A stretch of DNA of 64,000 nucleotides from a virus (IMGVR_UViG_3300033463_000054:30898-94897); one strand, 5' to 3'; numbered from the stretch's first letter, positions 39,745-63,855 are shown. Numbers and translations: made by a program. The notes: generated from the sequence alone by a model not told the origin.

Positions 39745-42660
39745 TTAATCCTTCTTGTTAGGATTCATATAATTTATTACGGTAGATCTTGATACGCCAA
39801 TAGCATCTGCTATCTCAGTATTACTGTATCCAGAATTCTTCATGGCTTCTATTTTATTAATTTTAGCCTGTGTGAGAGCAGGTCTGTCCTTAGGCATAGC
39901 GTACTTTCGAAGTTGATCTTGATCACACTTCTGGAAGATGTCAGACTGTTTGCTACTATGAATTGCTCCAGCCTGAATAGCTTCCCATTCTCTAGGCGTA
40001 ATGTCTATCTTTATAGATTTAGCACCAACTTCTTCACGCGCTTTAGTCATCTCTTGTTGCGCGACCTTCTTACGATACTTATTAAGTTCAGTCTTACCAT
40101 AATCGGGATGATCGTCCTTATAATATTGCATACGCTCATCTATTCTAGCATCAGCTCTAAGTTGGGCTTGTCTCTCACGAGGTCTGTTCTTATTAACCAT
40201 AAGAAGTTTCTCGTCAAGTGACTTAACTTCAGGAGCATACTTAGCAGCCGCCTCTTTACTATAAGTCATAGTCGGTGTATTAACAGCTGTCTTTCTCGCA
40301 TAATTAGCCAACGATTTAAGTTCACTAGCATAACCAGCGTATGCTTCTTCTTGCACAGTACCTGAAGAAAGAGTATAAGGATCTTTAGTAATAGACATCC
40401 TATCAACCTTGGTAAAACGTTCAACAGTCTTACCTTTCTTATCCTTATAAAAACGTTCGCTATCAGGAGCTGTTCTATAGGTTATTTCGCCGGTTTCTTT
40501 ATCTATTATACCAGAACCCTTCCTAAGAGGTATTCTAGCTTCAGAACCTGCCATAGTAAGAAGTGTTGATGCACCGGTACTATAACGCCCTGTTTCAGGA
40601 TCAATGTGTCCTTTCCAGCGCTTAGTAAGAGCATCAATGTTATTGTCTCTCTTAGAAGCTTCATAATCTAGATGATGCTTAGCAGAGTCAATGACAACCA
40701 TAGAATGTTTTGTAGCACATGCAAGTTCCTGATCAGAAGCGCCCTTAAGAGTCATGTCCATAATAAGATTTGAAACCATACCCATTTGCTTCTGCTGATC
40801 AGCACCCTTCTTCATGATCTTATTTGAATAACCAGTAGGAGATTTAGGGTCAGGAATACCGGGATATGCCATCTTAGTATCAAAGTCCTTAAGACCATCA
40901 AGAGGTTCTCTATTAGTTACAGACGTAGCTTTATTCTTTCCAGTAGGTAAAACAAGAACTGTATCGCCATCGAAATCGGCACCAGAAAGTCTTTCTGCTA
41001 CATGTGCATTTATACCGACTGCATCCAAAGCATTAGCTCCAAGAACTCTCTTACCTTCAGCATTCTTGTTATTAACTGTCAATATAGGTATCTGTCCAGT
41101 GTTCTCGTGAGGAAATCTTACAAGAGCAACTTTCTCACCATCTTTATAGTTCGGAGCATAAACTTCAGTATCCTTAATATCGGTAAGAGGCAAAATAACC
41201 TGATACTTCTGTCGAGGTAATGCTGCTGCAGACAATGTCGCCGCATTCGTATCACAGTCTCCAGCAAAATCCATTAAATACTTCTTTCGAAGAGAAGGAT
41301 TCTCAAGAGCCATTATTTCGTCAAGTTCTTCTTTTCTGTCAGCTATAGACAATTTAAGCTGTGTCTGAATAAACTCTGGTTTCTGCTTAGCCAAGAACTG
41401 AGAAGGTAAAGTATCAGACCATTCATTCCAGTCGCCTTCTTCTCTTGTTTTATTTATAGGACTAAGCTTCATCTTTCCTGTTTTAGGATCCTTATATTCA
41501 TATTGTCCACCAGCAGTAACTTTAACTACTTCACCGGTTTCAGGATCGCGATATTCTTCTCTTTCTCCAGTCTTAATAAGCGCACCAAAAGGATTCTTAG
41601 GATCCTTCTCGGCAGGCTTAAGAACACCTTTGCCGTTCTCGTCAGGCATTAAAGAAGTTCCGCGTTTCTTGTTGGAGTTAATAAGAATATCATAACCTTC
41701 AGGAATGTCATCAGAATATAATGCCATTCCCTTAATATAGGCCTTACCGTCAACAAGAGTTCTTATCTGAGCATAATGAGAATTACCGAGAGAAAGATCT
41801 TCAACACCACGTCTTATCTCGATAACACCGTCTTTGTCCTTACCACCATCTTCAGCATATCTAACATAAATACGCTTACTATCAAGTGACGAAGGAGGCT
41901 GAGTTTTAACATATGTCGCTCCACCATCGTGAGAATGATAATCATCGATGGTATGAATTTCTTCATGATAGAGATCTTTCTGTTGTGTTCCCGGAGGTGC
42001 AATTACTCTTATTGTTGTAGACTTACCCGGATTCGTAGGCTGGTTAACTCTTCGGTTAGATACAAAATATCCATCAGCTTGGCAAACAATAAGAGCCTCA
42101 TCAAGCATGTTTCTAGAACATCCAAGACTAAGCTCTGCTGATTTACCTACATCGATAATACCCTTTTCGTCAACCTTCTTCTTAAGAACTTCAGCGGTTG
42201 CTTGAGCACCAGTCTGTTTAGCAATTTCATTAGCACGAATATAATTACCAACAGTCGTGTCAGGAATACCAAGTTTTCTACTTATCTCAAGGTTAGAATA
42301 TCCCTTCTCGTGAAGATTCTTACAATGAGTAATAAGTTCGGCCCTTCTTTGATTACTAGCGATAGCTTCATAAACTCGAAACTCCTTGATCTCCATTTCA
42401 AGTTCTTCGGATATCTGTTTAGCAGTCATTCCCTGTTTCTTAAGTTCATTTACACGACTAAGAAAGTCACCACTATGTTGATAAGGTGCATCACCAGAAC
42501 CCCAAGGATATCTACCAGAATGTCTCTTAGTTCCGTAATGCATTAGAACATCATCATTAGAATCATTAGAATAATTAGAATCAACAGATTCGGTGCTATT
42601 TGAAATATCAACAGGTTCATCAAGAAGACTATTGACATGTTCTAAAATATCCATAATCAT
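39745..42660 (-). CDS. Putative single-subunit two-barrel (DPBB) RNA polymerase with N- and C-terminal HTH domains
   Basis: RFP motif followed by LSGADFDGD (ADFDGD at 40963-40980); upstream YIKGM; three HTH-like segments. Confidence 0.7.
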   Translation of the reverse strand: MIMDILEHVNSLLDEPVDISNSTESVDSNYSNDSNDDVLMHYGTKRHSGRYPWGSGDAPYQHSGDFLSRVNELKKQGMTAKQISEELEMEIKEFRVYEAIASNQRRAELITHCKNLHEKGYSNLEISRKLGIPDTTVGNYIRANEIAKQTGAQATAEVLKKKVDEKGIIDVGKSAELSLGCSRNMLDEALIVCQADGYFVSNRRVNQPTNPGKSTTIRVIAPPGTQQKDLYHEEIHTIDDYHSHDGGATYVKTQPPSSLDSKRIYVRYAEDGGKDKDGVIEIRRGVEDLSLGNSHYAQIRTLVDGKAYIKGMALYSDDIPEGYDILINSNKKRGTSLMPDENGKGVLKPAEKDPKNPFGALIKTGEREEYRDPETGEVVKVTAGGQYEYKDPKTGKMKLSPINKTREEGDWNEWSDTLPSQFLAKQKPEFIQTQLKLSIADRKEELDEIMALENPSLRKKYLMDFAGDCDTNAATLSAAALPRQKYQVILPLTDIKDTEVYAPNYKDGEKVALVRFPHENTGQIPILTVNNKNAEGKRVLGANALDAVGINAHVAERLSGADFDGDTVLVLPTGKNKATSVTNREPLDGLKDFDTKMAYPGIPDPKSPTGYSNKIMKKGADQQKQMGMVSNLIMDMTLKGASDQELACATKHSMVVIDSAKHHLDYEASKRDNNIDALTKRWKGHIDPETGRYSTGASTLLTMAGSEARIPLRKGSGIIDKETGEITYRTAPDSERFYKDKKGKTVERFTKVDRMSITKDPYTLSSGTVQEEAYAGYASELKSLANYARKTAVNTPTMTYSKEAAAKYAPEVKSLDEKLLMVNKNRPRERQAQLRADARIDERMQYYKDDHPDYGKTELNKYRKKVAQQEMTKAREEVGAKSIKIDITPREWEAIQAGAIHSSKQSDIFQKCDQDQLRKYAMPKDRPALTQAKINKIEAMKNSGYSNTEIADAIGVSRSTVINYMNPNKKD

Positions 42661-43313
42661 GTTCCTTTCATAGTATTAATAAATGCATCACGTTTCTTGA
42701 TCGTATCCATCATGTCCAAAATATCATGAACGTCTGGCTGCTCAATAACAACATCCTGATTGGTCTGATATATACGAAGTTCTATCTCGCAATCAACAGC
42801 TTTGTATTCGCGATAGTCAAGAAAGAAAAGAGCAGCGTAAATCATAAGCTGTTCTATCTTTGGCTGGGATGCTCCAGTCTTTAAGTCAAATATCCGCAAG
42901 AAATTCTTCTTATCATTGAAATCTATAGCGTCAGCATGTCCGAAACAATTGTCGCTAAAATATAAACAAACTTCAGGGTCCATCCTATAGCCTATAGCAT
43001 CATTGACATAACGACACATATTGTCATACATATCATCAAACGGAATATAGTCAATGACTTTGCGAGGAACACCTTTGTCAAGAAGGCTTATAAGAATATC
43101 GCTCTTATTCTTCTTGCTCATACGGTATCCAATAAGAGGACCTTTAGCTATACGCTTAGCTGCTTCGTCATGCATCAACGTTCCAATTGTTTGAGCATAC
43201 GAATTACAAAATCGTTTCTCAAAGTCATCGTCTTCGTCATAAATCCAATATGACTGTGACGGGCTCAAGACAGAGTGTGAACCTCTAAGTCTTGAAAAAT
43301 TCTTCCATTGCAT
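42657..43313 (-). CDS. PD-(D/E)XK Cas4/RecB-like nuclease
   Basis: GTLMH, GHADAI, IFDLKTG, QLMIYA. Confidence 0.8.
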   Translation of the reverse strand: MQWKNFSRLRGSHSVLSPSQSYWIYDEDDDFEKRFCNSYAQTIGTLMHDEAAKRIAKGPLIGYRMSKKNKSDILISLLDKGVPRKVIDYIPFDDMYDNMCRYVNDAIGYRMDPEVCLYFSDNCFGHADAIDFNDKKNFLRIFDLKTGASQPKIEQLMIYAALFFLDYREYKAVDCEIELRIYQTNQDVVIEQPDVHDILDMMDTIKKRDAFINTMKGT

Positions 43314-43584
43314 CGAGTGTTTCCTCCTTATTCTCAGGATAAATAAATCGAGCAAAGGACATAGAGTCACAATGCTCGACATAATAATCCTGATTCGGTT
43401 GGTGTTTTTCATTGGCGCTCTTCTTACATTCAAGCATTGCCCACTTATCACCATACATCACAGACAAGTCAGGAATGCCCTGAATATAATTAGCGTCATT
43501 CTTTAATACAACACATCCGTCAAACCGCTCCTTGATTTCACGAATGAGATTGGCTTGAAATTTATTCTCTTTAGCATTAGCCAT
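43285..43584 (-). CDS. VRR-NUC-like nuclease/resolvase
   Basis: ENKFQ, GIPDL, LECK, QPNQDYY. Confidence 0.8.
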   Translation of the reverse strand: MANAKENKFQANLIREIKERFDGCVVLKNDANYIQGIPDLSVMYGDKWAMLECKKSANEKHQPNQDYYVEHCDSMSFARFIYPENKEETLDAMEEFFKT

Positions 43585-43606
43585 AAATATCAACAACCTT
43601 AATTAC

Positions 43607-44029: not shown

Positions 44030-44740
44030 CTCATTTTGCGTAATCAACATAAATTCGCGTTACGCGAAACGCTGGCATTTTCTCTTCTCTTCCATAATAT
44101 AGCATGTAATTTTTGCGAGTTTGTGATAGTTTTGTGAAAATTGTGAACAAATTGTGAACAACAGCAGAAATCGCCCGAAAATAGGTCGTGAAGAAGAAAA
44201 ATTAGTTTCTATCCAAAAATCCAGTTTTATTTCTTATTTATTATACGCGAAAAAATCACTAAAAATAATAAAAGGGTAGAAAAAAACTGGTTATTTGGTT
44301 AAAAAATGAACAAATGGCTTCCCTACGTCGTTTGACGCCAACCACTTTCCATACCAGTTTTGGTTTTTAACCAGTTTTGTGAGCGAATTTTTCGCGTTAC
44401 GCGAATTTTTAAAAATCGACTTTCAAAAATAAGTGGTTTTTTGGCAAAACTGGTTATAAAACTGGTTATAAAAGTGGTTAGAAAATCGCCTAAAATTACA
44501 CAAAAATACACTAAATTTCAGTGAAATTTGCCTGTCAAAACCTTAAAATATCAACAAATTCATGCCCACACGACCTCTCAACCTACGAAATTATGAACAA
44601 ATTATGAACAGATTTCTCATAACGCGAAATAATGACAAAAATAAGAGACCGTGTAAGTAACTAAAAACGCCCAAAAACACATTAATTTAGACCAAAAACA
44701 CCTTAAAATATCAACAAATCCGACCTAAATTAAAGCGAAA
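44030..44740. other. AT-rich non-coding region with iterated repeats, candidate replication origin
   Basis: Palindrome TTCGCGTTACGCGAA at 44054 and 44391; tandem AAAACTGGTTAT; TGAACAAATT repeats. Confidence 0.5.
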
Positions 44741-44781
44741 AAGAGAAGAGCATGTGTTCTCACATACCCTTCTCATTGGTT

Positions 44782-44976
44782 TTACTCCTCGTCAATCTTC
44801 AACGTAATAATATTATTAAGCGTCAAAAGACCCACGATATTCTGATTGTCGCCCTTTACGCAGGTGACAAGCCATTTTCTGTCATCGGAAATAAAGACAT
44901 CATTCTTGTCCTTATTTACGCTGAACTGAACCTTCTTGCCGTTCTCGTACATTGCTGCAACATTAATCTTTGCCAT
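44782..44976 (-). CDS. Small beta protein, paralogue of 45807-46007
   Basis: Own promoter motif, AGGAGG RBS and terminator. Confidence 0.8.
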   Translation of the reverse strand: MAKINVAAMYENGKKVQFSVNKDKNDVFISDDRKWLVTCVKGDNQNIVGLLTLNNIITLKIDEE

Positions 44977-45143
44977 AGTGTTTCCTCCTAAAATATTAAA
45001 ATATTAAATATTGATTTGGCTTTCTTGCCATATAAGAGTATGTACATTTTGCGATACGCGAATTAATTACAAACTGATACACGAAAAACTAAGAGGCCAT
45101 GTATCAATCCTCAAATATCAACACGACCTTTTAGCCGTGAAAT

Positions 45144-45257
45144 TCATTCTTCTTCAATTATAACATCATTGCCGAATATTGTTTTAACATCTGTGTCGTT
45201 TGAAACAGTCACCTTCATCTCATAACCATCTTCAAATATCACCTTAATAATTCTCAT
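45144..45257 (-). CDS. 37-aa protein not in the ORF track
   Basis: MRIIKVIFEDGYEMKVTV...; AAGGAG RBS, own promoter motif and terminator. Confidence 0.7.
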   Translation of the reverse strand: MRIIKVIFEDGYEMKVTVSNDTDVKTIFGNDVIIEEE

Positions 45258-45433
45258 AATATTCACTCCTTATTAGTTATTAATTGAATACTCAATGGTA
45301 TTCCATATAAGAGCGTGTTATATATGCGAACTTCGTTTACTTTAAACTAGATGCGTGTCATATATGCAAATATCAACAAAGCAAAAACTAAGAGGCCATG
45401 TATTTTCTACACGACCTCAGTCTTTATTTAATC

Positions 45434-45679
45434 CTAGTCGTCGTAATTTTTGTATAGCAATTTAGCAAATATTTGATTTATTGGGTTAAAAAGCCACATA
45501 ACAAACCCGATATCTTTATTTTTGATTATAATGTAATCGCGTTCATCGTCGCAAGATGCATAACACGGATCTTCCGCAATATGCATTACCGCTTCTTCGA
45601 TTACACGTATCATATATTTGATACCGCAGTTGTTAAATGGCGAAATTTCACCTTTAAATCTTTTCATTTTTCTTGCCAT
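45434..45679 (-). CDS. Hypothetical protein
   Basis: RBS, promoter motif and terminator. Confidence 0.7.
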   Translation of the reverse strand: MARKMKRFKGEISPFNNCGIKYMIRVIEEAVMHIAEDPCYASCDDERDYIIIKNKDIGFVMWLFNPINQIFAKLLYKNYDD

Positions 45680-45806
45680 AAAAATCAACTCCTTCCATAT
45701 AAGCGTATGTAATATTTACGATCTAAAATATCAACAAAACAAAAAACAAAAGAAGATGTACAAACGAAAAAGAGAAGAGGCTGTGTAAGCCCCTTCCTTT
45801 GTTTGG

Positions 45807-46007
45807 TTACCGCTCAACCATCCTAGTTCTCAGGGTTTTTACTTCCTTAAGATTTACGATTCCGACCACGGTATCAGTATCGTCCTTGAGCCAAGTGAGG
45901 AAGTAGTCATCGGTCACGGTGTATTTATACTGTGCCGTGTCGATTTCAAACTTCTCATTCTTGCCGTCCTTGAACTGAACCTCTACGTTAATCATTCTCT
46001 TTGCCAT
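45807..46007 (-). CDS. Small beta protein, paralogue of 44782-44976
   Basis: MAKRMINV...VVGIVNL; own promoter motif and terminator. Confidence 0.8.
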   Translation of the reverse strand: MAKRMINVEVQFKDGKNEKFEIDTAQYKYTVTDDYFLTWLKDDTDTVVGIVNLKEVKTLRTRMVER

Positions 46008-46215
46008 AATTAAGTCCTCCTTAAATATTAAGATATTAGTTGAAGAGTAATCCTCTCCATATAAGCCGGTGTAAAATTTGCGAATCGCGAATTAAATATC
46101 AACAAGATAAAAACTAAGAGGCCATGTAATTTCTACACGACCTCTAGACCTCTATTAGTCTTAAGCCATCTTTTTTAGGCCCATAGACTTATCTGGCACC
46201 TTATAATTTTTATTA

Positions 46216-46482
46216 TTATTGCGGTTTCTGTTCCTGTGTTTCATCGAGCTTTTTCTCAATTTCAGTAACTGTTTTATCAAATGCAGCAATAGCACCCTTT
46301 TGTATCTCTGCACTACGCTTCATAAGATCTTGAGTAAACGAAATGCGAATATTATCAAGCTTTTCCTGAAACATTCGTTCTTCTTCCTCTTCTTCGCGCT
46401 TTCTATTATAGAAGTAGTCAATGGCTAAGAATGTGCCTGCAACTAAAGCACTACCTATAATAATCTTATGAATATTTCTCAT
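46216..46482 (-). CDS. Small membrane-anchored coiled-coil protein
   Basis: N-terminal hydrophobic helix. Confidence 0.65.
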   Translation of the reverse strand: MRNIHKIIIGSALVAGTFLAIDYFYNRKREEEEEERMFQEKLDNIRISFTQDLMKRSAEIQKGAIAAFDKTVTEIEKKLDETQEQKPQ

Positions 46483-46505
46483 AAATATCAACACCTCTAT
46501 CTATA

Positions 46506-46826
46506 TTACTCATCAAATATCCCATCAAACACAGCTTCCAAGTCTTCCATCCAAACAGGAGCCCCACGACCAAATATCAAGAAGTCTGTCGTCACGTCAA
46601 AGAACAAAGCCAGTCTAGCAAGTGACTCAGCATTAGGCGTACGTTTACCATACTCCCACTGAAATAATGCCGACTTAGACACACCGATCTCCTTAGCTAC
46701 TTTCTCAACCGACAAACATCTCTTCTTCCTAAGAACATAGATTCTCTTACCGAACTTAACCGGGTCAAAGAAGAAATCCGCTTTACCCGACTTAAAACCA
46801 TGTTCACGAGCTCTTTCAGTCATCAA
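46506..46826 (-). CDS. XRE-family HTH regulator
   Basis: VAKEIGVSKSALFQWEYGKRTP...FDVTTDFL. Confidence 0.9.
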   Translation of the reverse strand: MMTERAREHGFKSGKADFFFDPVKFGKRIYVLRKKRCLSVEKVAKEIGVSKSALFQWEYGKRTPNAESLARLALFFDVTTDFLIFGRGAPVWMEDLEAVFDGIFDE

Positions 46827-47332
46827 ATATCAACTCCTTCTCGCCTCTCAGGTCTACGATAATGATACGCCCTATACGAATCAGGTCTACGATAGAGATA
46901 TGTCATATGCGAACTTCCGCTATTAGGATTGAATCTATCTCGATAATTGTTGAGTACATCAGCTGTATAGTCCATCTCGGCTTTAAGGTCTATTCCTGCT
47001 TCCTTAATTGCGTCAAATATCATTACCTGTTCATCAGTCGAAAGAACATCCTTAGAATATTCACGATATGCATAAGGTATGATAACAGGACCACCCTCAT
47101 GATCGATAAATCTTACATAGAAATCCTCTTCATACTTAATAGGATCGGGACCAAACTCAGCAAGAATCTCAATCTCTATCGACGGAAGCTGAAGAACATA
47201 CTTAGCATCATCCGGCACCTTCTCAAATGTCATCTCACCATCAAGAGAATGCTCATTATACGAATAAAACGCTGTCATATCCACGAAACCATAACCAACC
47301 TGCTTAGAAACACCAACAATATGCTTAATCAT
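46823..47332 (-). CDS. Hypothetical protein
   Basis: 169-aa ORF with RBS. Confidence 0.7.
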   Translation of the reverse strand: MIKHIVGVSKQVGYGFVDMTAFYSYNEHSLDGEMTFEKVPDDAKYVLQLPSIEIEILAEFGPDPIKYEEDFYVRFIDHEGGPVIIPYAYREYSKDVLSTDEQVMIFDAIKEAGIDLKAEMDYTADVLNNYRDRFNPNSGSSHMTYLYRRPDSYRAYHYRRPERREGVDI

Positions 47333-47436
47333 AACTAATTTCCTCCGTTTTCATGTAATTTTCACACAATTTTCACAAAACTATCACATAACTTACACAA
47401 AACAGCCAATAGATAGCTTATTTTCCACTGTCAACT

Positions 47437-47643
47437 CTATTCTCTAAATTCTCTCAGTCTCGACACTGCATCTTCGCGAATATCAACAGCCACTGCATCT
47501 ATGATCTCGCTACAGCTATCACGAACCGTTTTCTTCTCTGACTCCCTCTGCTTCTCCTCGATCTTCCTAAATATCAAATCAACCAGAGCCACAGCTATTG
47601 TCCCACATATAGCAGTACACAAAAGTTTCTCAGCGTTAGTCAT
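47437..47643 (-). CDS. Small membrane-anchored protein, similar to 46216-46482
   Basis: N-terminal hydrophobic helix then a charged tail. Confidence 0.6.
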   Translation of the reverse strand: MTNAEKLLCTAICGTIAVALVDLIFRKIEEKQRESEKKTVRDSCSEIIDAVAVDIREDAVSRLREFRE

Positions 47644-48508
47644 AATTATTCTTCTCCTTCCAAATATCAACACTATAATACTCCACGAACTTATTGACAG
47701 ACAGCCAATTGTCGCAACCACGATCAGAACATGCTTGATTGTAGTCGTCTATTAAGTCCTTATACTCGTCTACCGAAGCTTTCGACACACCAAAGATGTC
47801 ACTAAGAATATCAATCACTTCTGACTCGTTGTTGTAGTATTTATTACCCGTGTCATATAGTTCAAACACTTTACGATCAGTATCTGTAACCTCGACTGTC
47901 TTCTTATCAAATATAACATGACCCTTACGATGCAGAGGTTTGCCACGCTTACCGTATCTAATCGCGTATGTTGTGCCTGAAAGATCTGCGTATGCATCAA
48001 TGTAATAATTATCTTTGAAGTCCGGATACTCAAGATCACAGTTATGTTTTACATAGTAAAATCCACCTTCTTCCGTAGCCATCAAACTATACGAAATATC
48101 AAGGCCTAACTTTTCAAACATACGATCCCATACATTAGGCATAGGATCCCACGCAGTAGTTGTCGTAAGACTAAGCATGGCATTACCACGACTATCCATG
48201 CGGTAATTCCTCGACCAGTCTTCAGGATACTCATCGTCATAATATCCATCAAGCAGATCAAAACTACCACGACATGAATAATCCTTACCGTCATCAGGCG
48301 TCTTTACATAGTGACCACTATACGATTTCTTATCAGGCACTATCTCAAGAAGCCCAACTTCAGCAAGCACATTACCCAGCCACGTACGACCGAACCCATA
48401 ATCACCTATGACAGAGTTTCTCTTGGCATTCATCAAAGTCTTATAGAAAATATCAATATCCTCACGACTACCATGAAATATATAATCTGTCCAGCACCAA
48501 TTAGGCAT
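47636..48508 (-). CDS. MPNWC-family (DUF1281/YubB-like) protein
   Basis: MPNWC start, TTAWDP, EEGG motifs. Confidence 0.6.
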   Translation of the reverse strand: MPNWCWTDYIFHGSREDIDIFYKTLMNAKRNSVIGDYGFGRTWLGNVLAEVGLLEIVPDKKSYSGHYVKTPDDGKDYSCRGSFDLLDGYYDDEYPEDWSRNYRMDSRGNAMLSLTTTTAWDPMPNVWDRMFEKLGLDISYSLMATEEGGFYYVKHNCDLEYPDFKDNYYIDAYADLSGTTYAIRYGKRGKPLHRKGHVIFDKKTVEVTDTDRKVFELYDTGNKYYNNESEVIDILSDIFGVSKASVDEYKDLIDDYNQACSDRGCDNWLSVNKFVEYYSVDIWKEKNNYD

Positions 48509-48527
48509 AAATTAATACTCCTCTCTG

Positions 48528-49822
48528 TTATTCATTAGTTTTAGGTCTATCAAAACCGAAGTCTATAGTATAATCATTCCTATCAACTGCACACTTAGTC
48601 AACATCCATATATTATCGAGAAATTGACCCATTTCCTCATCAGAAAAATCTGACTGAATAAGCATTTCTGCTATCTCATTCATTGTATCTGCTATAATTG
48701 TATTTTCCATAAATTAATACTCCTATCTATTAAACAATCGGCTCACTCTTTTTGACCGACTCATCATGCGGATCCACTCCGTTTATAATGTTACACATGG
48801 CGTTTTTAAACAAAACACTAGCTTCTACTTTATCGACATCTGTATAGTCACAAATATCAATCCATGATTCCAATGAATGAGACAGTCCTTGCAACACCCA
48901 ATGATCATACGAATGAATCATGCGATACTGAATAATGTCGTCGGTATTAATATAGCCAAACTCTACATCTCCATCCAAGTCCTCTATACATCTGATTATC
49001 ATAAAATATCACTTCTCCTTAAATTTACCAAATATTCAGAGCGTATCGATAACTATAGGATGTTCTCTATTTGCTTCAATAATTCTAGTAGCAAGATCAA
49101 GATACATCCAAATATCAACATGTGCAGCCAGAATGTTATCATACGCCGCAACTTGATTACCCTCGCTTATCTGACCGACATGTATATTTCCATTAAAGAA
49201 ATATAAACTATCTTCCATGTAAAGTCTTCTATCATTCTTGATAAAGTCTACATATCTAAAACATACATAAGGGTCCTCAAAACCTCCAACTTTAACCGGA
49301 ATAAAAACTTTAGGTATACCGGCACCAACGTTTATTAGAATTCTTCTATCGGGATCAAATTCGATTTTTATTGTGTTTGTCATAGTGGCTGTGTATATTG
49401 TATTCATATTCATAAATATCACTCCTCCCAAGATCCGTCATAAGCAGATGCTTCTTTAGCCATAATCCAAATAGTATCAAGAAACTTATTAATATCCTCG
49501 TTAGTGAGTTTTGAATTCATAAGTAAATTACTAATATCACTCATGGTCTGATCAATAACATCCTTAATTTTATAAGGTTCATCATTAACGGTTGCTACTA
49601 TCTTTTCTCGCTCTTGCATAAATATCAATCTCCTTCCTTCGAATCAGACATGTACACTGTTCTCGAGCATGCCGGACATTTCATATACACGTCGTAAGGA
49701 AAACACGGTGGAGTGAAATTTACCTCATTACGCCTAGCCGACCATTCACAGTCACAATCCGGACAAGTAAACTTAAACTCTTCCTTTTGGGACTTAACAT
49801 TGCCTAGTTTATGTATAGTCAT
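48528..49822 (-). other. Five small CDS (48528-48710, 48730-49002, 49036-49413, 49419-49619, 49625-49822); the last is a Zn-ribbon, and the first and fourth are paralogues
   Basis: RBS-preceded ORFs; FLDNIWM vs FLDTIWI; CPDC...CPAC. Confidence 0.65.
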
Positions 49823-49880
49823 AAACATTACTCCTTTCAAATATCAACAATGTGCGTTAAACTAAAAGAGAAAGGGGATG

Positions 49881-50858
49881 TTACTCCCCAGTCTCGTCTT
49901 TCCAAGAGTCAGGTATCTTACCTTTTTTAACTTCTCGCCTTTCATATTGATAAGCTTTCATTATTGATGTTACACTTCTTTCTAAGGTTTCATGTTCAAC
50001 AACATTCATGTCCAATTTTAATTGTAATGCAGTTATGCTTTCTTTTTCTGCATCATAATCATTTATCATGTCCACAACTTGTCGTTCATAAACTCCTCGT
50101 ATTCAAATAATGCATCAATAATCGCCTGTTTCAATACGCTTTCTTTTTCGATATTTGTCATAAAATATCAACTCCTTTCATATAAGAAGATGTATTTATT
50201 GCGACTTCACATAACCTTAAACTTCTCATCCAACGAGATCCCATATTCTGCCATCTCACCCACAAGCTGAGAGTAAATATCAACAGCGTCATATGAATCG
50301 ACTTTCATAAGGCACTTAAATCCGTCAGGACAATCAAACGACACTTCAGAATTGTCAGATGAACCCTTAAATATCACAACTGCATCAGTGAGCTCCTGCC
50401 ATTTCTTTGCGTGTGTGATCCTAGACTTCACCCGAATATCAGTCGAACCTCTAGCATCGATCTCGACGGGTACCTCATATGTCCCATCTGCTTTTGTTTC
50501 AGGGGTACGGCTAACATCATATTTAACCTTAATCATAAAATATCAACCTCTCTCTACTGCTATATTAACTAGTCTTTCTCCAGCTTTACCAACCTGAGTT
50601 ATTTCAGGACCGATTTGTGTCATAAGATCAATAAATTCCTTACGACTAATGCTCATATCAGAAAATATCATTTTTATCCGGCCTTTCATATCTTTGAACG
50701 TACGGGTAATTACACTGAGGACAACTAGTTTCCCAAATCGTTTTATCTGATTCAAAATATTTCAGATATTCGTTGCTGAGAAACCAAATATCACAATGTG
50801 AACAATAAAACATTTTAAAGTCTTCGATGTCCGCTCGTTTATCGAGTATGAATTTCAT
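49881..50858 (-). other. Cluster of small hypothetical CDS including a Zn-ribbon (50658-50858)
   Basis: ORF track; CSHC...CPQC. Confidence 0.6.
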
Positions 50859-50884
50859 AGAATATCAACCTTTCTTTAAATCTT

Positions 50885-51019
50885 TTAAATTGTATGGTCC
50901 GTAAGTTGTCCGCAGTTAGGGCATGCCATATATACTCCAAATTCCATATAATGTAGCCACGGAGGCGTAAACTTAACCTCGTCTCATTTTGCTGCCCATT
51001 CACATCTAATTACTGTCAT
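50885..51019 (-). pseudogene. Decayed paralogue of Zn-ribbon gene 49625-49822
   Basis: MTVIRCEWAAK*DEVKFTPP...VYMACPNC: in-frame TGA and an N-terminal deletion. Confidence 0.75.
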
Positions 51020-51059
51020 AAATATCAATCCTCCTTATAACTAAAAGAAGAAGAGGATG

Positions 51060-52372: not shown

Positions 52373-52409
52373 TTTCCTTTCATAAATTCATAAATATCAA
52401 CTAAACGAC

Positions 52410-52604: not shown

Positions 52605-52611
52605 ATCATCA

Positions 52612-53548
52612 TTAATCCTTTCCCAAATATAAATGTCGCTTAGGAGCCTTAGATTCACCCTTAGTAACCTTCGACTGACAAATATCATTCTCCACGACAT
52701 GTTTTTCACCAGTACGATCGAGATGATTACACCAGACGAATCGCTTAATTGCTCCGCCGTCTTTGTAACCCCATTGTGCATAAATACAGTCTATGCATTG
52801 TTTGTGGTCGGAAAGCATCACGACTCACCTCCTTCTTGCAGCATCTTAGTATATCCAGTTACAATAAAGAGCTTCTTCATAGTGTCATTTAGCATTCTAA
52901 AATACTCATCACCTGACATACCCAGAAGCTCTTCAAGCCTACGATCTCTTTCCTCATTAGACATACCGTTAGGATTAATCTTAGAGAATATAAGTTCAGG
53001 TTCCTCAAGAATTCTCTCATGTATGCTAATGATCTTACACAGATCAACCTTGAGAGACAACCACGTAGCCTTTATCTGAGCAGGAATATTATCCACCACG
53101 AGAGTTAAATCCATATTGTCACGAAGAGATTTGAAACCTTCAAGCTGATTAGCAAACTCAGAAACGAGTCCATCATCATCAAGCGAACTATAGCCACTGA
53201 CTAGATCGTTTATATCCCCTTTACGACCCTGAAGTTCCAGATTAGCATTAGCGAGTTCATCAAATTCTTCCATTGTACTTTTATTAACATACATAAGACA
53301 ATTCTCCTTTATCATCAAAGATTCGGCCAAATATAAATAGTTATGTCTATGTCTTTATCGTTCTTATCAAACTCCTCATAACATACCGACGATTGACGCT
53401 TACCTATGATCGAGATTATTCCCTGATCATACTTGTAACAAGCTTCCTCCTCTTTTAGATAAGCTTTAAACTTCTCGTCATCAGGTATAACACAGCTTTC
53501 GTCTTTTCTCTTAGCATCCGTCTCGCTGTAATACAAAACCGCTCCCAT
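52612..53548 (-). other. Three hypothetical CDS (52612-52821 Cys-rich, 52818-53330, 53315-53548)
   Basis: Overlapping start/stop codons. Confidence 0.65.
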
Positions 53549-53554
53549 AGGATA

Positions 53555-54464
53555 TCAATCCTCCTCATCCAAATCAAGTTTCTCAAGCGCCCAGTCAAAT
53601 ATCCATGATGCTTTACGTTCAAGTTTACCAAATTCGTCACATAGCTCCCTGACCCTAGGCGACAGAGAGCATGCTAAATATAAAAGACTCACCGGTCCGA
53701 TGAAAGCCATGATGAAGAACACTAATTCACTCATCTTCGTCATCCTCCTCGTCATCTGAATCATCACGGTAGTTGACAGTGTATTTTTCATCGTCGCTAT
53801 TTCCATCATCCATACCGTGAATCAAATACTCATCATAGAGATTATCTATAGTCATGTCCATTAGTCATCCTCCTTTCTAACTAAATCCTTGAATGTCCAG
53901 TCTTCTATCTTGCATAGTGTTTTCTTAAGGACGTCAAGATAAAAGGCCTGTGTGATCTCCTGTGCGATTTCGTGACTCACATCTTCGTTCTTCGTAGATG
54001 CTCTTACCGGGTCCTCATTAACCTTTGTAATACCTCTAACCACGACAAATGGCAGAGCTATAAAGACACATATATAACATATGATCTTGAATGCCACGAA
54101 AACCACGAACTTAAAGGGAAACAGAATGTACTTCATACGATCAATCCTCCTTATCGTCATCCTCATTCTTCTTGTCTATCTCATCAAGCTTAGCCGTTAT
54201 ACCAAGCTTAGAATCGACGTAATCCATAAATCTATCTAAAATATCAAGGCCAATAATGTATCTCCTGACATAATCCCATATAACTGCCGACATTTTATTA
54301 GTGTCTTCATCAGTGATACGTTCATTCAAAGTGCCATTTGCAACTCCCTGAACCGCCACACGAATAATCATCAAGAAATATAAAGGCACACACAAAACAG
54401 TTAATAGTAGATTAATAAGTCCTACTATTATGTATATTATGAATAGAATTAGTTTAAATATCAT
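53555..54464 (-). other. Three small membrane proteins (53555-53734, 53861-54136, 54141-54464)
   Basis: N-terminal hydrophobic helices and acidic C-termini ending ED/EDD. Confidence 0.65.
53727..53861 (-). CDS. 44-aa highly acidic peptide not in the ORF track
   Basis: TAATG-coupled to the upstream gene; 20 of 44 residues are D/E. Confidence 0.65.
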   Translation of the reverse strand: MDMTIDNLYDEYLIHGMDDGNSDDEKYTVNYRDDSDDEEDDEDE

Positions 54465-54650
54465 ACTAACACCTCCATAAAACGAATAACGGGAAAAGAG
54501 CATGTCAACAGTCCAACTTATTGGCCTATAAGTCGAATCTGCCATTAAACTCAATTCCCTACATCCAAATCCAAGTCATAATTTAACCTCCTAAATTTAA
54601 ATTATTAACCGGTCCATAATATACGGTGTATTTTTTGCGAGGTGCGAATA

Positions 54651-56885
54651 TCAATCTATCCTTTCTTCTAACGTTCCATCGTTTATTTGCCTTCCGCATT
54701 CAGGGCAGAACTTTGGGTAATACCAGCTAGAGATCGTTTCACCGGACGCGTAAATGTAAAGTTTGTTATCTTTATCTTTAGCCGTATACAAGCTAGTCCA
54801 ACCATCATTTCCTATGAGATACTCGGTATCATTTACTTTACCCGTGCTTTTTAATGAACAAAATAGACAATCCATAAATATCAATCCTCCAGCTCATCAA
54901 TCACTATTCCATCTGTTACGACTTTAATGATTATTTCGTCATTAGTTGCCTCATAACTAATATCGCCTCTAAGTCTTTCAGCGTTTGTCTCGGGATTAAG
55001 TGACCATCCATAAAGAAAACCGATCTTCTTACGAGGAATAAGCATTAAATCAGCAAGCTCATTAACAAATATAGGTCCGCCATCAATCTTAGCACGGTCA
55101 CAAGCCTTATTAATAAAGTTTTCTATGCATAACTCGACGAATGTCATATTAATTGTACTACCATCAGCAAAATACGGACTTCTCTTATCGAATATCAATG
55201 TAATCATTCTAATTCTCCTATCAACGCATCAAGTTTTTCAACTAAATCCTCAGCTGACTGTCTGCATACTTTAAGCTGCTGAAGACATTCTTCGGTATCC
55301 CAGTATTCAGGTTTACCTTCTTCGGGATCTTTCATACAGTTAGTATAGATCATCTTTATTATTGTATATGCCGTGTTAGCCTCTCCACCACAGCAACAAA
55401 TCTTAGAAAAAGTATTCATTCACCATACCTCCTAAACATTAGCTTATCGAGGTCGTTCAAATATCCATTGAGATCGACCCTCTCTGTTAACAGCTGATCG
55501 AGAATATCATCTCTTTCCTCATTAGTAAGTGCGTACGTTATAGCTCTACCCTCAGCTATGTCCTTGGCTGTATAAGACGGTATGACCAAGAAATTAAGCA
55601 TCTTAGTCTTACCCGTTACCTTGTCTCTAAATACCACAGCCGACCAACACTGATTAGCCGCCTCCTCTATCTCGATAGGCACAAAAACAACTGGGAAATA
55701 CTCATCAAGTACCTCCCAGCCATCTTTAATTCTATAGCCAATATTCGGACAGAACTTAATTTTCCTCAACGTATCGAACTTTACTTTCATAAATATCAAT
55801 CCTCTACCTATAAACTAAAACTCACAAATTCTCATACTTATCTCTAAAGTATTCATGCTTGGTGGCTATTTCGTCCATGCAAATCTTAAATCTAAGATAT
55901 GTCCCGAGATTAATAAACTTCTTCTCATGAATATCCTCGATAATATTCTGCACGAATTCACATGTAGCCAGCATAGAGAGAAGTTTACCCTTGTCAACCG
56001 GAGTTAGCTGAGTTTTACCAAGTTCTTTCATCAGACCGTTTTTAGCCATCTCCAGAGACTTACGAGCCTTAGTTACGTTATCTAAATCCGAAGCCAGACA
56101 ATCCTCACTCAGCTCGAAGTTAAGATTGTCATCCGCCTCGAACATAGAATATACCTCTTCTCTTACTTCCTCAGGCATACTCTGAACCCTCGCTAGTATT
56201 TGCTCTATGCTGAAATCTAAGTCTTCACGATCATGTTCATTCATAAATATCAATCCTCCTTAACGTTATCCGGCAGCTTCTCCACGAGTTTCATAAGATC
56301 ACTCCTACATTTAAGAAGCTTCTTATACCACTCAAGATATGGAGCGACATCATCAATTAGTTTTTTGTGGGTTCTTGATGGTATCTTGGCTCTAAGAGTA
56401 TATCTTACCCCTCCACCACTAAGTCGATTGCAGAAATTACGGAACTGACCATAGTCTCCACCGTTCTTCTTAATCACGGTATGTACAAATCGATTGATTC
56501 TAGGATTAAATATGTCCTGTACGAAGTCAGAAGGAATAGCTACCTCGGCTTGATTAGCCATCCTAATTACCTGATCCCATACGTTATCTTTCTGAACATA
56601 CGCCCAACCATGTTTCATTCCTGAAATATCATTGCGTACAGTATCTACTTCAAGAAGAATATAACAGTCTTCATCAGGAGAATCTATAACAGTATTAAAA
56701 TCAGAACATGTTCTTACTACATGACCTGAACAGGAATACTCTGTAACATACTTCTTATCCCAGAGAACCCTGAGTAAAGGATAGATTTCCTCATCACAAG
56801 GCCACATACCATAAATATCATTGTTGCGATGATGCACACCTTTAATTATAGGATGATGACTAAGTGTTGTAACATACAAACTCAT
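54651..56885 (-). other. Six hypothetical CDS (54651-54875 Zn-ribbon, 54881-55207, 55204-55419, 55416-55790, 55822-56244, 56250-56885)
   Basis: Coupled ORFs, several starting within TGATATTTATG. Confidence 0.65.
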
Positions 56886-57133
56886 TCTTTTACCTCCTCT
56901 TTAGGTACGGCTTTGTTGTATGTGTCCAAAGCATACTCACTCCAGCCGGGAACATCGAGATCTGCCTCGTCATGCTCAACCGCTACATAAAGACAATAAG
57001 GAAGAGCATCTGACATGTTAATCTGTCCCTCCTTATACGTCTTCATGAGCTTTTCTTCTGCTTCTGTTTCGTCCTTAGCCTCAATGATGAATTCTTTGAG
57101 TCTGTATTCTTCGATTAAAGTGTAAAACTTCAT
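56882..57133 (-). CDS. DpnD/PcfM-like protein
   Basis: IEE...IEAKDETEAEEK...YKEGQI pattern. Confidence 0.55.
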   Translation of the reverse strand: MKFYTLIEEYRLKEFIIEAKDETEAEEKLMKTYKEGQINMSDALPYCLYVAVEHDEADLDVPGWSEYALDTYNKAVPKEEVKE

Positions 57134-57139
57134 AAAATA

Positions 57140-58201
57140 TCACGCTCCTTTCGCTTCGTCATAGGATTTGCTGGAAAGTTCCTCCTTAAACTTCCAGTAG
57201 TTTTTCCTCATAAATTCAGTGCCACGTGCCCAAATGAGACCAGCCTTCTCGAAACCAACGTTCTCACAGTCAGCTATGATTTCACGAGCATACTCCTTCG
57301 CATTTGAAGAAGTTTTAGTTTTGTTCGTGATGAGACCCGACTTAAGAGTAACGTTATATTTATTGTTCATATAGACAACCCTGTTACGATTCTTAAGGTC
57401 ATCCATAATAAACTTGGAGTTCTTCAGACCGAGCTTAGACAGAGCTATAGAGATATCATCTGACTTAGTCCACCCCTTGTTAAACAAGAAGCAATCCGTC
57501 GCCAGAATATAATCTCTTGTAGGATCGAGTCTACGGTAATGAGCATACGATCTTTTCTTAGACTTCGACCCGGACTTAGCTACCTTAGCAGCTTCAGCAC
57601 CCGGCTTAACCGAACCGAGTTTATGTGTTACTGTCACAGTCGGAGCAGGTTCGCTAACAGGTATAGGAGTAGGAGTCATCTCTATTATTGTATCACGATC
57701 CTCGGTGCTCTCAGTCTCCTCGTCGTCCGAAATATCATTGTCGTCGGAATATGTTATAGCCAGTCTCGAATAACTAAGAAGTCTCTCATCATGATTATGT
57801 ATCTCGTTTCTTACACTGTCAACCGTCTCAGGATCATCAAGAAAATCTTCTACGGACTGATGAATCATAGCCGCAAGATACTTCTTGAATACGTCCTTAA
57901 ACAGTTCAGGTGTGAGGAACTTATCATGAGTGTAGTTCTCTATGATGGTCGATACATTAACTGTTATGGGGCAGTCACAAATGATGTTGCTTGTCTGACC
58001 GTCAATATCCTCGAGAGAATATATCCAGTTACTACTATATTCGCCGTTATGGGTCATCTTGAGAACCACGATACGTCTGTTGTTTGATGCAATAATAAGA
58101 TAAGGTCTATTCTTAGTTATGTCACCGTTGAGTGCACTAGTGTTAATCGTTGCAAATATAATCTGACCGGGAACAAATTTACGCATGCCGTATTCTTTCA
58201 T
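57140..58201 (-). CDS. Protein with an N-terminal PemK/MazF-like domain and a long C-terminal extension
   Basis: GQIIFA...GDITKNRPYLIIASN...VVLKMT pattern. Confidence 0.5.
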   Translation of the reverse strand: MKEYGMRKFVPGQIIFATINTSALNGDITKNRPYLIIASNNRRIVVLKMTHNGEYSSNWIYSLEDIDGQTSNIICDCPITVNVSTIIENYTHDKFLTPELFKDVFKKYLAAMIHQSVEDFLDDPETVDSVRNEIHNHDERLLSYSRLAITYSDDNDISDDEETESTEDRDTIIEMTPTPIPVSEPAPTVTVTHKLGSVKPGAEAAKVAKSGSKSKKRSYAHYRRLDPTRDYILATDCFLFNKGWTKSDDISIALSKLGLKNSKFIMDDLKNRNRVVYMNNKYNVTLKSGLITNKTKTSSNAKEYAREIIADCENVGFEKAGLIWARGTEFMRKNYWKFKEELSSKSYDEAKGA

Positions 58202-58234
58202 GATTCATTACCTCCGTTTTTCTTTTTATAAATA

Positions 58235-59083
58235 TTAAAATTTATAGTCAACTGCATCTTGTCTATTTATGAAGAAATGAACACCGGATGCGCATTCATT
58301 CCATCTATTGTCATCAAAATCATTAACTTCAATAATTTCCCCGACACGATAAATAAAATCATGGTCATAATGGCTTCTAACGTTTGGAATATCAATAATA
58401 TTTCCTTCTATGTCCTGAAATTCAAGAACTATAGCTTTAGAACATCTACACTTTCTTCCCGTAGCAGACGATCTTTTAGCATCCTCGGTTATCTGTATTT
58501 TAACAATAACCTCCGCGATTTTATATTTAACTGCTTTCTTCCAACCAATAAAGGATCCACTATCAGGACAATTCATGGGAACATAAGGAATGTTTTTCGC
58601 TCCACGCAGGTCCGTTCCATACAGGTCAGTTCCATACAGGTCAGTTCCACGTAGGTTAGCTCCATACAGGTTAACTCCACGCAGGTTAGCTCCATACAGG
58701 TTAGCTCCACTCAGGTCAGTTCCACGTAGGTTAGCTCCATACAGGTTAACTCCACTCAGGTTAGCTCCATACAGGTTAACTCCACTCAGGTCAGCTCTAT
58801 ACAGGTTAGCTCCATACAGGTTAGCTCCACTCAGGTCAGTTCCACGTAGGTTAGCTCCATACAGGTTAACTCCACGCAGGTTAGCTCCACTCAGGTTAGC
58901 TCCACTCAGGTCAGTTCCACGTAGGTTAGCTCCATACAGGTTAACTCCACTCAGGTCAGCTCCATACAGGTTAACTCCACGCAGGTCAGCTCTCATATTT
59001 TCCCATCCATCAGTATCTTTCCTGATCCAATGCTGATGATTGTCAAGTATAATTTTAAGTTTTTCTTTTGAAATATTATTCAT
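58235..59083 (-). CDS. Pentapeptide-repeat protein with a DUF5758-like C-terminal domain
   Basis: About 25 (A/V/T)(N/D)LxG repeats; FIGWKK, RKCRCSKA, RWNECASGVHFF. Confidence 0.9.
   Translation of the reverse strand: MNNISKEKLKIILDNHQHWIRKDTDGWENMRADLRGVNLYGADLSGVNLYGANLRGTDLSGANLSGANLRGVNLYGANLRGTDLSGANLYGANLYRADLSGVNLYGANLSGVNLYGANLRGTDLSGANLYGANLRGVNLYGANLRGTDLYGTDLYGTDLRGAKNIPYVPMNCPDSGSFIGWKKAVKYKIAEVIVKIQITEDAKRSSATGRKCRCSKAIVLEFQDIEGNIIDIPNVRSHYDHDFIYRVGEIIEVNDFDDNRWNECASGVHFFINRQDAVDYKF
58605..58992. repeat. 15-bp tandem repeat encoding the pentapeptides
   Basis: CAGGTTAGCTCCATA-type units. Confidence 0.95.
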
Positions 59084-59110
59084 AAAATTACCTCCTAAAA
59101 TATCAATCAT

Positions 59111-59680
59111 TCATTCATAGTTCTTCTTATGCCGTTGCCCACACCAAACACCATACTGTAACGCCTGCATTTTAAGTGTGTCAGGGCTTATTCTAGTATG
59201 ATGTTTTTCGTAATGAAGTTTTGCTATTTCGCTCCAATCTTCTCCTGTTTGTTCCATCCATTTGTCAAGTTCAGTCATCTTATCAAAGGCATACCTCCAT
59301 CCATTTACTCGATTGCGTTTATTATTGCTAGGAATATCTTCAATATCCCAACGTGCCCCACATGCTCTCAGAACTAAGTAAATATAACCGTCTTCCTCAT
59401 ACTCAAGATCGATGTAGTTGTTAGTCTGAGCGTATGTATCCTCAAACACTGCACCTGATGCTTTTTCCCATCCCGGAAGATGACAAATAGCATCGCACTT
59501 ATTCAACGCACAAATATCAAGCTCGAGCATGTCTTTACGATCCCACTCCGAGTCATATCTCAGCCACGAAGGATTAAATACTGAGAAACCATACTCTTTT
59601 AGTTTCGCTTCACATCTGTCGAATGCCTCTTTGTTGTCGTTAGGATAACCTCTCATAGGTCCAGATATAAATACTTTCAT
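59111..59680 (-). CDS. DUF4406 / nucleoside deoxyribosyltransferase-fold protein
   Basis: VFISGPMRG, VFNP, CDAI..LPGWEKASGA. Confidence 0.8.
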   Translation of the reverse strand: MKVFISGPMRGYPNDNKEAFDRCEAKLKEYGFSVFNPSWLRYDSEWDRKDMLELDICALNKCDAICHLPGWEKASGAVFEDTYAQTNNYIDLEYEEDGYIYLVLRACGARWDIEDIPSNNKRNRVNGWRYAFDKMTELDKWMEQTGEDWSEIAKLHYEKHHTRISPDTLKMQALQYGVWCGQRHKKNYE

Positions 59681-59825
59681 TAGACATTACCTCCTAAAAA
59701 TATAAAGCGATAAACGAAAAAGAAGAGAGTGTCTGTATAAAAACATACATCACTCGTCTTCCATTAAAGAACGTGTATTTTTTGCGAAGTGCAAATCACG
59801 AAATAAAGAAAAAGAGAAGAGGCTG

Positions 59826-60677: not shown

Positions 60678-60696
60678 AAATCGTTACCTCCAAATA

Positions 60697-61672: not shown

Positions 61673-61673
61673 G

Positions 61674-62496: not shown

Positions 62497-62502
62497 TAAA
62501 TA

Positions 62503-63235: not shown

Positions 63236-63240
63236 AAATA

Positions 63241-63480
63241 TCAATCTCTCCTCAACGTATCTATGATCCAATCCATCTCGCTACGATTAAATATCAAGTT
63301 CTTAGTATCAGGTTCTGTCATCTCTCTAATAAACTCTTCATGACAATCATTACGGCTATTCTCTTTAGCTAGCGCATAGGTAGTGATAGTAACATGAAAG
63401 TCAATAGATTCATCAAGGGTGCCATATTGCTCTCTAATATTACGTATGAACTTTCGACGATTAGATTTCTTGCTCATCAA
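63241..63480 (-). CDS. Hypothetical protein
   Basis: 79-aa ORF with RBS. Confidence 0.6.
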   Translation of the reverse strand: MMSKKSNRRKFIRNIREQYGTLDESIDFHVTITTYALAKENSRNDCHEEFIREMTEPDTKNLIFNRSEMDWIIDTLRRD

Positions 63481-63483
63481 ATA

Positions 63484-63855
63484 TCACTCCTTGCTCCCCG
63501 CAATAGGTTTGCCGCAGTATGGGCAAAAGTTATAATCAAACTGCTCTGGTCGCATATAGTATGCTCTGCTAACTGTGCATCCGCACACAGCACATTCAAA
63601 TTGATTTGCATACCCTCTTGTATCTGTGGCTATCGGCTTAAACGTAGTTGTTTCGTGCTCTTGCGGAATACAATATGTGTTTACTTTTGTTTGCAGATTA
63701 ACAAGACCTACATTATATCCGTTGTTCCACATCCAATTACCAAAACTACTAATTTTCTCATCGTGCATATACGGTATAAAATTTTCGTGGTGATTGAAAT
63801 GTTCGGGGTTAGTGTCGTGTGTCAGTTCCTCAACCCAAAAGTCTACATTATTCAT
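63484..63855 (-). CDS. Zn-ribbon protein
   Basis: FECAVCG...YNFCPYCG. Confidence 0.75.
   Translation of the reverse strand: MNNVDFWVEELTHDTNPEHFNHHENFIPYMHDEKISSFGNWMWNNGYNVGLVNLQTKVNTYCIPQEHETTTFKPIATDTRGYANQFECAVCGCTVSRAYYMRPEQFDYNFCPYCGKPIAGSKE

Follow-up and report, generated by a model that had tools for sequence, protein, structure and literature searches.

The question raised by IMGVR_UViG_3300033463_000054:30898-94897 is why a phage should carry one short word in many copies on one strand of its DNA. This stretch of 64,000 nucleotides, referred to here as the window, belongs to a 94.9-kb viral record. The word, motif A, is TGATATTT on the coding strand and reads AAATATCA on the plus strand of the window; a second word, motif B (TCAAAATG), is repeated in a similar manner in the other arm of the genome. 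We tentatively propose that the two-barrel RNA polymerase of the phage, the candidate reader of both words, starts or re-loads weakly at A and strongly at B.

The first-pass annotation of the window had estimated about 60 same-strand copies of motif A between positions 42600 and 63490, where 1-2 were expected, and about two in the first 39 kb. Counting confirmed both estimates: the interval contains 63 plus-strand copies of AAATATCA with a composition expectation of 1.27 and none in the opposite orientation, and exactly two copies are located in the first 39 kb, at 2495 and 6190. The array (42603-63486, minus strand) extends beyond the window into the replication module and the integrase gene, and the whole record has 111 copies of A and a single reversed one. 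The view of A as a tag of the early arm was too narrow, since it is also present in the replication module, in the integrase gene (in antisense) and in the distal tail, diversity-generating retroelement (DGR) and lysis region, all of which lie outside the window. On the linear map drawn from the inferred cos ends, A covers 32-92 kb and B 0-68 kb.

With gene calls that are heuristic throughout, 29 copies of A were found in the early-arm genes, where shuffling of synonymous codons gave a mean of 4.6 and a maximum of 11 in 300 runs and shuffling of the codon order gave 1.2; these copies fill 29 of the 43 positions permitted by the encoded proteins. The replication module also contains 29 copies, compared to 3.3 after shuffling, and 67-78% of the permitted positions are used in the two regions. 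The motif comprises 6-8 bp and about two-thirds of its sites lie within genes; in the early arm, it is about half, and an intragenic location had already been noticed in the first-pass annotation. Of the 110 sites considered genome-wide, 12 contribute a stop codon, and 17 abut a start codon, lying between the ribosome-binding site (RBS) and the start. The signal therefore outlasts a codon-shuffled null and is not explained by codon or stop-start usage alone; a codon, dipeptide or stop-start origin was ruled out by the two shuffles and the opportunity counts. The joined form of RBS, stop and start codon, which had been described as frequent, makes up a minority of the sites, the exact 17-mer occurring four times in the window. 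Likewise, only two called genes open with M-I-F, and most of the many 'MIFM' starts reported before look like artefacts, in which a TTG or GTG right before the motif was misread as start codon.

The counterpart in the late arm that had been suggested for A does exist. Motif B forms an array of 39 copies of TCAAAATG (971-36997, minus strand) in the left half of the linear genome, with no reversed copy in the first 37 kb of the window and 68 versus 0 in the whole record. It is present in every family member examined, and nine isolates have 5-16 forward and no reversed copies. B consists of TCAAAAT followed by a purine, tends to run on as GGGAG and shares a T-x-A-x-A-x-T register with A. Its spacing is regular, mostly 1.5-3.5 kb, even within the tape-measure gene; 55 copies are placed on start codons and about 20 just before an RBS. 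The idea that A and the reverse complement of B are one site on opposite replichores, following the logic of primase sites, Chi or KOPS, was rejected because neither word is swapped into the arm of the other and because, on the same strand, each tends to be missing from the immediate vicinity of the other.

The phage is a siphophage of the 1706/Oengus-like supergroup (BI-AM-AU-AW-CC-DJ-EL), which spans bacterial phyla (10.1101/842583), and has all of its defining features: a two-barrel polymerase gene by the right end, a helicase-primase-PolB fusion, unidirectional genes and cos ends. A comparison of 20 near-whole genomes of this family revealed a shared core, (C/G/T)ATATT(T/C), of which motif A is the local form. 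The ratio of forward to reverse ATATT(T/C) is 115:0 in Perkunas, 150:2 in Poco6, 105:2 in Rima, 69:2 in Camille, 173:22 in BitterVaud1, 24:1 in SheRa and 202:67 in Qui; close relatives carry 22-24 copies of A per 10 kb and none reversed, and FP_oengus 36 versus 2. Among about 1000 5-mers, ATATT ranks first in eight isolates from six actinobacterial host genera, second in StarLord and fourth in the phage studied here. The core is enriched at least 2-fold in 66 of 77 further viral loci, and its reverse is at most at 0.7-fold in 39 of the 77. The specificity is all-or-none, each single substitution in ATATT being at background level, and the core stands out most clearly in genomes with a GC content of 51-61%. 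A sites are retained between relatives 1.4-4 times more often than control 7-mers; they turn over while their density stays roughly constant. The genomes are related by descent, so that pooled P values overstate independence.

The core is strong in the lytic phages Perkunas, Poco6, Camille and Rima and common in lytic members lacking an integrase. Since, in addition, the XRE and MazF-like proteins, candidates from the first-pass annotation, were not family-wide in a gene-presence comparison of the 20 genomes, a lysogeny repressor is unlikely. No enrichment of the core was seen in five unrelated controls (Patience, phiC31, FP_Taranis and two host-type genomes), which rules out a generic property of phages or hosts. 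The enrichment is specific to the family and crosses phyla, and the reader should therefore be viral. Within the family, the core is unenriched in 1706, P078 and MT835495, the last of which lacks the replication module of the family and may be chimeric; in 1706, A is mildly depleted on the coding strand (37 versus 57). GACC words, considered as a replacement motif in 1706 and P078, are mildly enriched, with unconvincing polarity and tiling.

In a search for the reader by gene presence and absence, a 180-amino-acid protein alone tracked A, and Pfam, PHROG and Atlas gave no hint of DNA binding. This protein (L001:11104-11646, minus strand) has a hydrophobic N-terminus, is encoded in 17 of 20 genomes and is missing exactly from the three without A. 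Alignments of helix-turn-helix (HTH), HNH and primase sequences showed no clear covariation with motif A. In a relative with 79% polymerase identity (L056), host-like PIN, ORF6N and UDP-glucose dehydrogenase genes replace the early arm, and motif A is almost absent from this segment (L056:1-9200). The FP_oengus record has a direct repeat at both ends, likely an attachment (att) core, which finishes in a perfect motif A.

The orientation of the sites and the genes that carry them indicate that A is read on DNA rather than as a tag of early mRNA. In the reversed integrase gene, the core lies on the top strand of the genome, antisense to the mRNA (11 versus 0 copies, with 2.3-3.7 expected), and the reversed open reading frames of relatives agree with this (43 versus 10, pooled). 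The core is also selected in late genes, where it occupies six of six possible sites in the terminase gene of BitterVaud1 and five of nine in that of Rima and is selected in the tape-measure genes of SheRa, Rima and Poco6. On the opposite strand, which is not represented in any mRNA, the core is depleted in Perkunas (1 versus 29), Poco6 (6 versus 31), Camille (2 versus 14) and the phage studied here (64 versus 107); AT-rich words are generally depleted in actinophages, and this depletion is specific only in some members, ranking 1st in Perkunas, 10th in Poco6, 13th in Camille and 123rd here. In StarLord, JoyLin and Circum, the latter analysed up to 50 kb, the same core and consensus are also enriched on the strand opposite the genes. 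These patterns do not fit a site on mRNA, unless antisense read-through and separate causes are assumed, and A lacks the restriction to the mRNA strand of early genes that would be expected for a RegB-like target. Of the original interpretation, the selected signal and a DNA site for a phage protein survive, while the early-class RNA tag, be it RegB-like or a translational operator, is not supported.

The sites also follow rules of spacing. A is spread uniformly within genes and often lies between the RBS and the start codon, and neither a start-site signature nor a second element was detected beside 1,082 pooled intragenic sites. In five genomes, gaps of 8-30 bp between A sites are absent (0 versus 21 expected), and the deficit reaches out to 70-90 bp. 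Pairs of A and B within 95 bp occur six times in this phage, where about 28 are expected, and pooled pairs within 90 bp amount to 47 versus 86 expected. This mutual avoidance suggests that the two motifs stand in for each other, and the deficit of close pairs is what redundancy predicts, so that one site of either kind per footprint would suffice. The density of A climbs from the left cos end to the right end of the genome, with the exceptions of Rima (uniform) and SheRa (central), and an A-type core is located about 19 bp inside the left end (39187-39193, minus strand); nine of 15 genomes have a core no further than 40 bp from this end. By contrast, the last 2.5 kb or so before the right end are free of the core (39220-41684, minus strand), and the A-free stretch measures at least about 2.2 kb in the family. 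In this phage, none of six permitted A sites is used in the terminal zone versus 25 of 29 in the replicase gene (P about 1e-4). In the wider comparison, the 3' two-thirds of the polymerase gene, the last large gene, use one of 25 permitted sites, whereas its first kilobase uses 28 of 49 and the replicase gene 146 of 225 (57-65%).

The polymerase gene (39745-42654, minus strand) encodes a single-chain, two-barrel RNA polymerase of 969 amino acids with the DxDGD motif in the form DFDGD. It matches PHROG 4291 and about 250 phage records, including FP_oengus, Lactococcus 1706-like phages and phages of Arthrobacter, Gordonia, Streptomyces, Microbacterium, Rhodococcus, Curtobacterium and Bifidobacterium. 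The structure model (pLDDT, a predicted local distance difference test, of 79) has its best matches in QDE-1, RDR2 and P23-45-type polymerases; HTH segments are located near residues 105-145 and 925-965, and an LMHYG tag is found in the N-terminal part. A tag of this kind, hydrophobic-x-His-(Tyr/His)-Gly, is conserved in most polymerases of the family and is also present near the N-terminus of several head-region proteins (tagged genes start at 42654, 38658, 35134, 33350, 29074 and 20396); it is a possible virion-cargo signal.

The copy numbers and their selection, the rules for strand, spacing and genome end, the distribution in the family and the fold of the polymerase are results of the analysis; the polymerase as reader, RNA starts at the sites and the run length of the enzyme are what we infer. 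A and B would be two grades of one kind of DNA site, read from left to right, in the sense direction, by a phage-encoded protein, most likely the two-barrel polymerase acting via its HTH domains or a small cofactor. B would provide a strong start site each 1.5-3.5 kb along the structural arm, and A a weak, short site each 200-400 bp in the distal two-thirds, at any place that codons and spacers leave free for it. From each site, the enzyme would start or be re-loaded and then run for about 2 kb or more; another site inside the same footprint of about 70-90 bp would add nothing, sites in the last 2 kb would be useless because of this run length, and reversed sites would tend to be purged because they fire antisense. 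In line with this proposal, the sites are specific to the family, follow the genome strand, tend to keep a footprint apart and stop short of the right end. The enzyme is universal in the family, it runs in the same direction, it possesses HTH segments, and its homologue in 1706, orf75, is annotated as a 'structural protein', i.e., a virion protein. In the related P23-45 polymerases, short dedicated motifs serve as promoters (10.1101/2022.12.01.518664), and B in particular looks like a late promoter of the phage polymerase, with its purine-rich tail, its positions on start codons or just before an RBS and its regular spacing.

Several observations weigh against polymerase sites. The lack of a start signature or flanking element at the pooled intragenic sites is at odds with a promoter, as is the even distribution of A along genes and its frequent position between the RBS and the start codon, where a promoter cannot serve that gene; an upstream location with a fixed start position is not seen for A and only in part for B. 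One A per 200-400 bp far exceeds the need of gene expression, and, within the polymerase gene, a site in the first kilobase has no more genes to serve than one located further in. The antisense core selected in StarLord, JoyLin and Circum is not what a promoter model predicts, the HTH alignment of the polymerases shows no visible covariation with the presence of A, and 1706 and P078 possess the polymerase and lack A. The pooled counts are, moreover, non-independent due to shared ancestry. The function of A as a terminator for the phage polymerase was rejected because A is selected in the late genes of some members.

A broader version of the polymerase proposal, which we consider unlikely, is that hundreds of oriented 6-8 bp sites, to which codons and even amino acids have been adapted, tile most of the chromosome so that a polymerase packaged in the virion can load or re-load at intervals of a few hundred bases. 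The purpose would go further than mRNA synthesis and could be to pull the genome from the particle or to prime replication. If true, it would be a new genome-wide directional code common to phages of two bacterial phyla.

The main rival explanation, rather doubtful in our view, is that A, and perhaps B, mark the DNA for packaging or ejection, either as strand-specific nick sites of the cos-associated HNH endonuclease or as binding sites of the terminase small subunit or a co-injected cargo protein; such marks would ease torsion or ratchet the DNA while the head fills from the left end. The all-or-none specificity of the core is enzyme-like, the density of A rises from the left cos end to the right end, a core lies inside a conserved inverted repeat at the left cos end, and the depletion of reverse-strand sites and close pairs would avert double-strand breaks. 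In tf-like phages, nick motifs occupy a single strand, are scattered in genes and are more frequent towards one side of the genome (PMC11780129), and cos-linked HNH proteins are strand-specific nickases with sites of 3-7 bp (PMC3592412); a cos-type HNH protein is encoded in 18 of 20 genomes, and the genome position of the family motif is better kept than its orientation. However, known nick motifs number about 9-13 per genome versus 100-340 copies here, the deficit of close pairs is no stronger than plain redundancy gives, and forward and reverse sites in Circum do not avoid one another. The gradient is not universal, given its absence from Rima and SheRa, and the last-packaged 2 kb are empty.

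It is distinctly unlikely that A binds a phage protein which coats the DNA or blocks the host RNA polymerase, thereby silencing or shutting off host-transcribed genes in the manner of stoperators. Polar, asymmetric and dispersed sites that stop elongation are known from cluster A mycobacteriophages (PMC9283540), the spacing of A suggests a protein footprint, and A is densest over host-type early units, with a core 6-24 bp upstream of 8 of 19 long promoters. A is strongest, however, in lytic isolates lacking an integrase, and it is selected in the terminase, portal and tape-measure genes of some members, which need full transcription. Furthermore, no family-wide repressor-like protein was found in the gene-presence comparison, and a roadblock gives no cause for purging the reverse orientation.

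Improbable, too, is the use of A and B as priming sites of the helicase-primase-polymerase, the homologue of GP55, on the lagging-strand template. This would account for a one-strand bias that is independent of gene direction and for the saturation at short range, and the spacing of B (1.5-3.5 kb) is near the GP55 product length of 600-4000 nucleotides (PMC12205980); the approximately 250 phage records with the polymerase are also those with the replicase, and the replicase of 1706, which lacks A, prefers another site. Co-occurrence was uninformative in deciding between polymerase and replicase, since both are found in the same record set. The preferred site of the 1706 enzyme is 5'-CCAAC-3', with sensitivity to changes therein, and A-rich members have a primase domain closely similar to that of 1706; this conservation, together with the different word measured for the family primase, weakens priming as an explanation. 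In addition, the first 20-30% of several genomes have nearly no A and few B, and two words on the same strand in two arms are a poor fit for one primase. Mechanisms outside those considered here are given a similarly small chance.

Very improbable is an RNA tag, i.e., an endoribonuclease site or translational operator that clears or controls early mRNA. Many RNase sites are AU-rich like A, the sites are nearly all in sense orientation because the genes nearly all are, and the 17 of 110 sites between RBS and start codon would suit an operator. The antisense sites in the integrase gene and the selection in late genes speak against it, as do the reverse strand, which is depleted in some members and enriched in others, and the sharp stop of A one kilobase into the polymerase mRNA, so that an RNA tag survives only with read-through RNA over the integrase gene and a separate cause for the reverse-strand patterns. 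An artefact of composition, codon or stop-start usage, for which an AT-rich word in an AT-rich genome and a TGA that may double as stop codon could be invoked, has practically no chance in view of the synonymous and codon-order shuffles, the clarity of the core at 51-61% GC and the retention of sites between relatives.

The neighbourhood of the arrays contains further features. The physical genome ends are placed at a 9-nucleotide cos site (39211-39219, minus strand) by analogy with isolates of known ends. A G-rich/C-rich inverted repeat with an A-tract loop lies just before it (39225-39265), is conserved in the family and often has a loop resembling motif B. The first gene after cos (38684-39001, minus strand) is kept in 18 of 20 genomes and encodes 105 amino acids; the product, possibly the terminase small subunit, for which the databases gave no support, is a rival candidate for the reader. 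Conserved exonuclease and endonuclease genes adjoin the polymerase gene (42657-43584, minus strand) and encode minor rival candidates for the reader. Promoter-like elements of about 27 bp, distinct from A and B, precede the early mini-operons (44090-59790, minus strand); they start near 59786, 54639, 50203, 46082, 45328, 45053 and 44117 and mostly sit just after intrinsic terminators. Beyond the window, the record encodes the helicase-primase-PolB fusion, the integrase on the opposite strand and the DGR reverse transcriptase (genome 29614-30681), which is accompanied by one template repeat and two variable repeats (275-386 and 1927-2038 in the window, and near genome 30841-30952).

Two non-coding elements of about 200 bp, 73% identical and containing inverted repeats, are candidates for origin-like elements; one lies in the middle of the genome and the other some 5 kb away from its right end (window 44207-44409; genome 19646-19854). 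The contig ends (window 63330-64000; genome 1-162) overlap by only 162 bp (97%) and then diverge, which suggests two alleles at a circular junction; due to this overlap, one copy of A is counted in duplicate. A pentapeptide-repeat-like gene (58235-59110, minus strand) has a 15-bp periodic repeat that gives rise to frequent 10-mers near 58.6-59.0 kb. The genes contain no CCAGG or CCTGG (0; 38 and 50 expected), and AGTACT is absent as well, which is likely an avoidance of host restriction sites; StarLord avoids CCWGG, too.

The virus family infects gut and soil bacteria; about 250 of its isolates have been sequenced, and metagenomes add thousands of relatives. Among its members are abundant gut phages as well as common phages of teaching collections. 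Its polymerase is often still annotated as 'HTH protein' or 'RdRP'. In the literature searched, no promoter is described for this enzyme and neither word is described for the family; the most over-represented word of these genomes appears to have gone unnoticed there. Motif A makes it possible to test how a widespread two-barrel polymerase locates its template, with Perkunas, Poco6 and Rima (115:0, 150:2 and 105:2) as culturable extremes and 1706 and P078 as natural negatives. If, instead, the sites serve packaging or nicking, they bear on why some phages mark or nick one DNA strand.

Among known systems, KOPS and Chi are host-specific, G-rich polar words that are read by host enzymes and form gradients towards a chromosome landmark. 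A and B resemble them as polar words with gradients, but the A word crosses two phyla and its reverse complement is unenriched in the other arm. T4 RegB, which acts at GGAG, and RegA control early mRNA; here, too, some sites lie in translation-initiation regions of early genes, but A ignores mRNA strand and gene class. Stoperators are 13-bp sites with about 20-30 copies. They are asymmetric, polar and numerous and in part overlap start or stop codons (PMC9283540), all of which is reminiscent of A. Whereas stoperators are tied to lysogeny and a known repressor and are mostly intergenic, A is a shorter word at higher density, lies mainly within genes and is abundant in lytic members. The primase sites of the NrS-1 polymerase (PMC8718748) and of 1706 GP55 (PMC12205980), an enzyme encoded in the same phage family, are also short, single-strand sites. 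The measured GP55 site, CCAAC, differs from both A and B and shows no strong polarity in these genomes.

The T4 late promoter TATAAATA is one of the short promoters used by phage-encoded polymerases or sigma factors. The motifs of P23-45 gp96/gp64 (10.1101/2022.12.01.518664) and SPbeta YonO (PMC5467207) belong to the same kind and resemble A and B, which are likewise short, AT-rich, one-strand, multicopy motifs; the likeness extends to a two-barrel enzyme, two motif classes in different regions and the position of B over gene starts. P23-45 has 14 + 7 mapped starts and YonO one start site, compared to 100-340 copies of A, which, unlike these promoters, is mostly intragenic, evenly tiled and without a start signature, and whose reader is only a candidate. 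The nick motifs of T5, phiKMV-like phages, tf and Rembedalsseter (PMC11780129, PMC3517423) are confined to one strand, dispersed in coding sequence and conserved within families; some of them are located at gene starts, and their distribution favours one side of the genome. A shares the one-strand, dispersed, family-conserved and skewed pattern, with three members carrying it on both strands. Nick motifs are 9-bp words with about 9-13 copies, while the word here comprises 6-8 bp, occurs in hundreds of copies and co-exists with a second word. Taken together, the closest parallels in mode of action are the short promoters reserved for phage polymerases and the nick-associated motifs.

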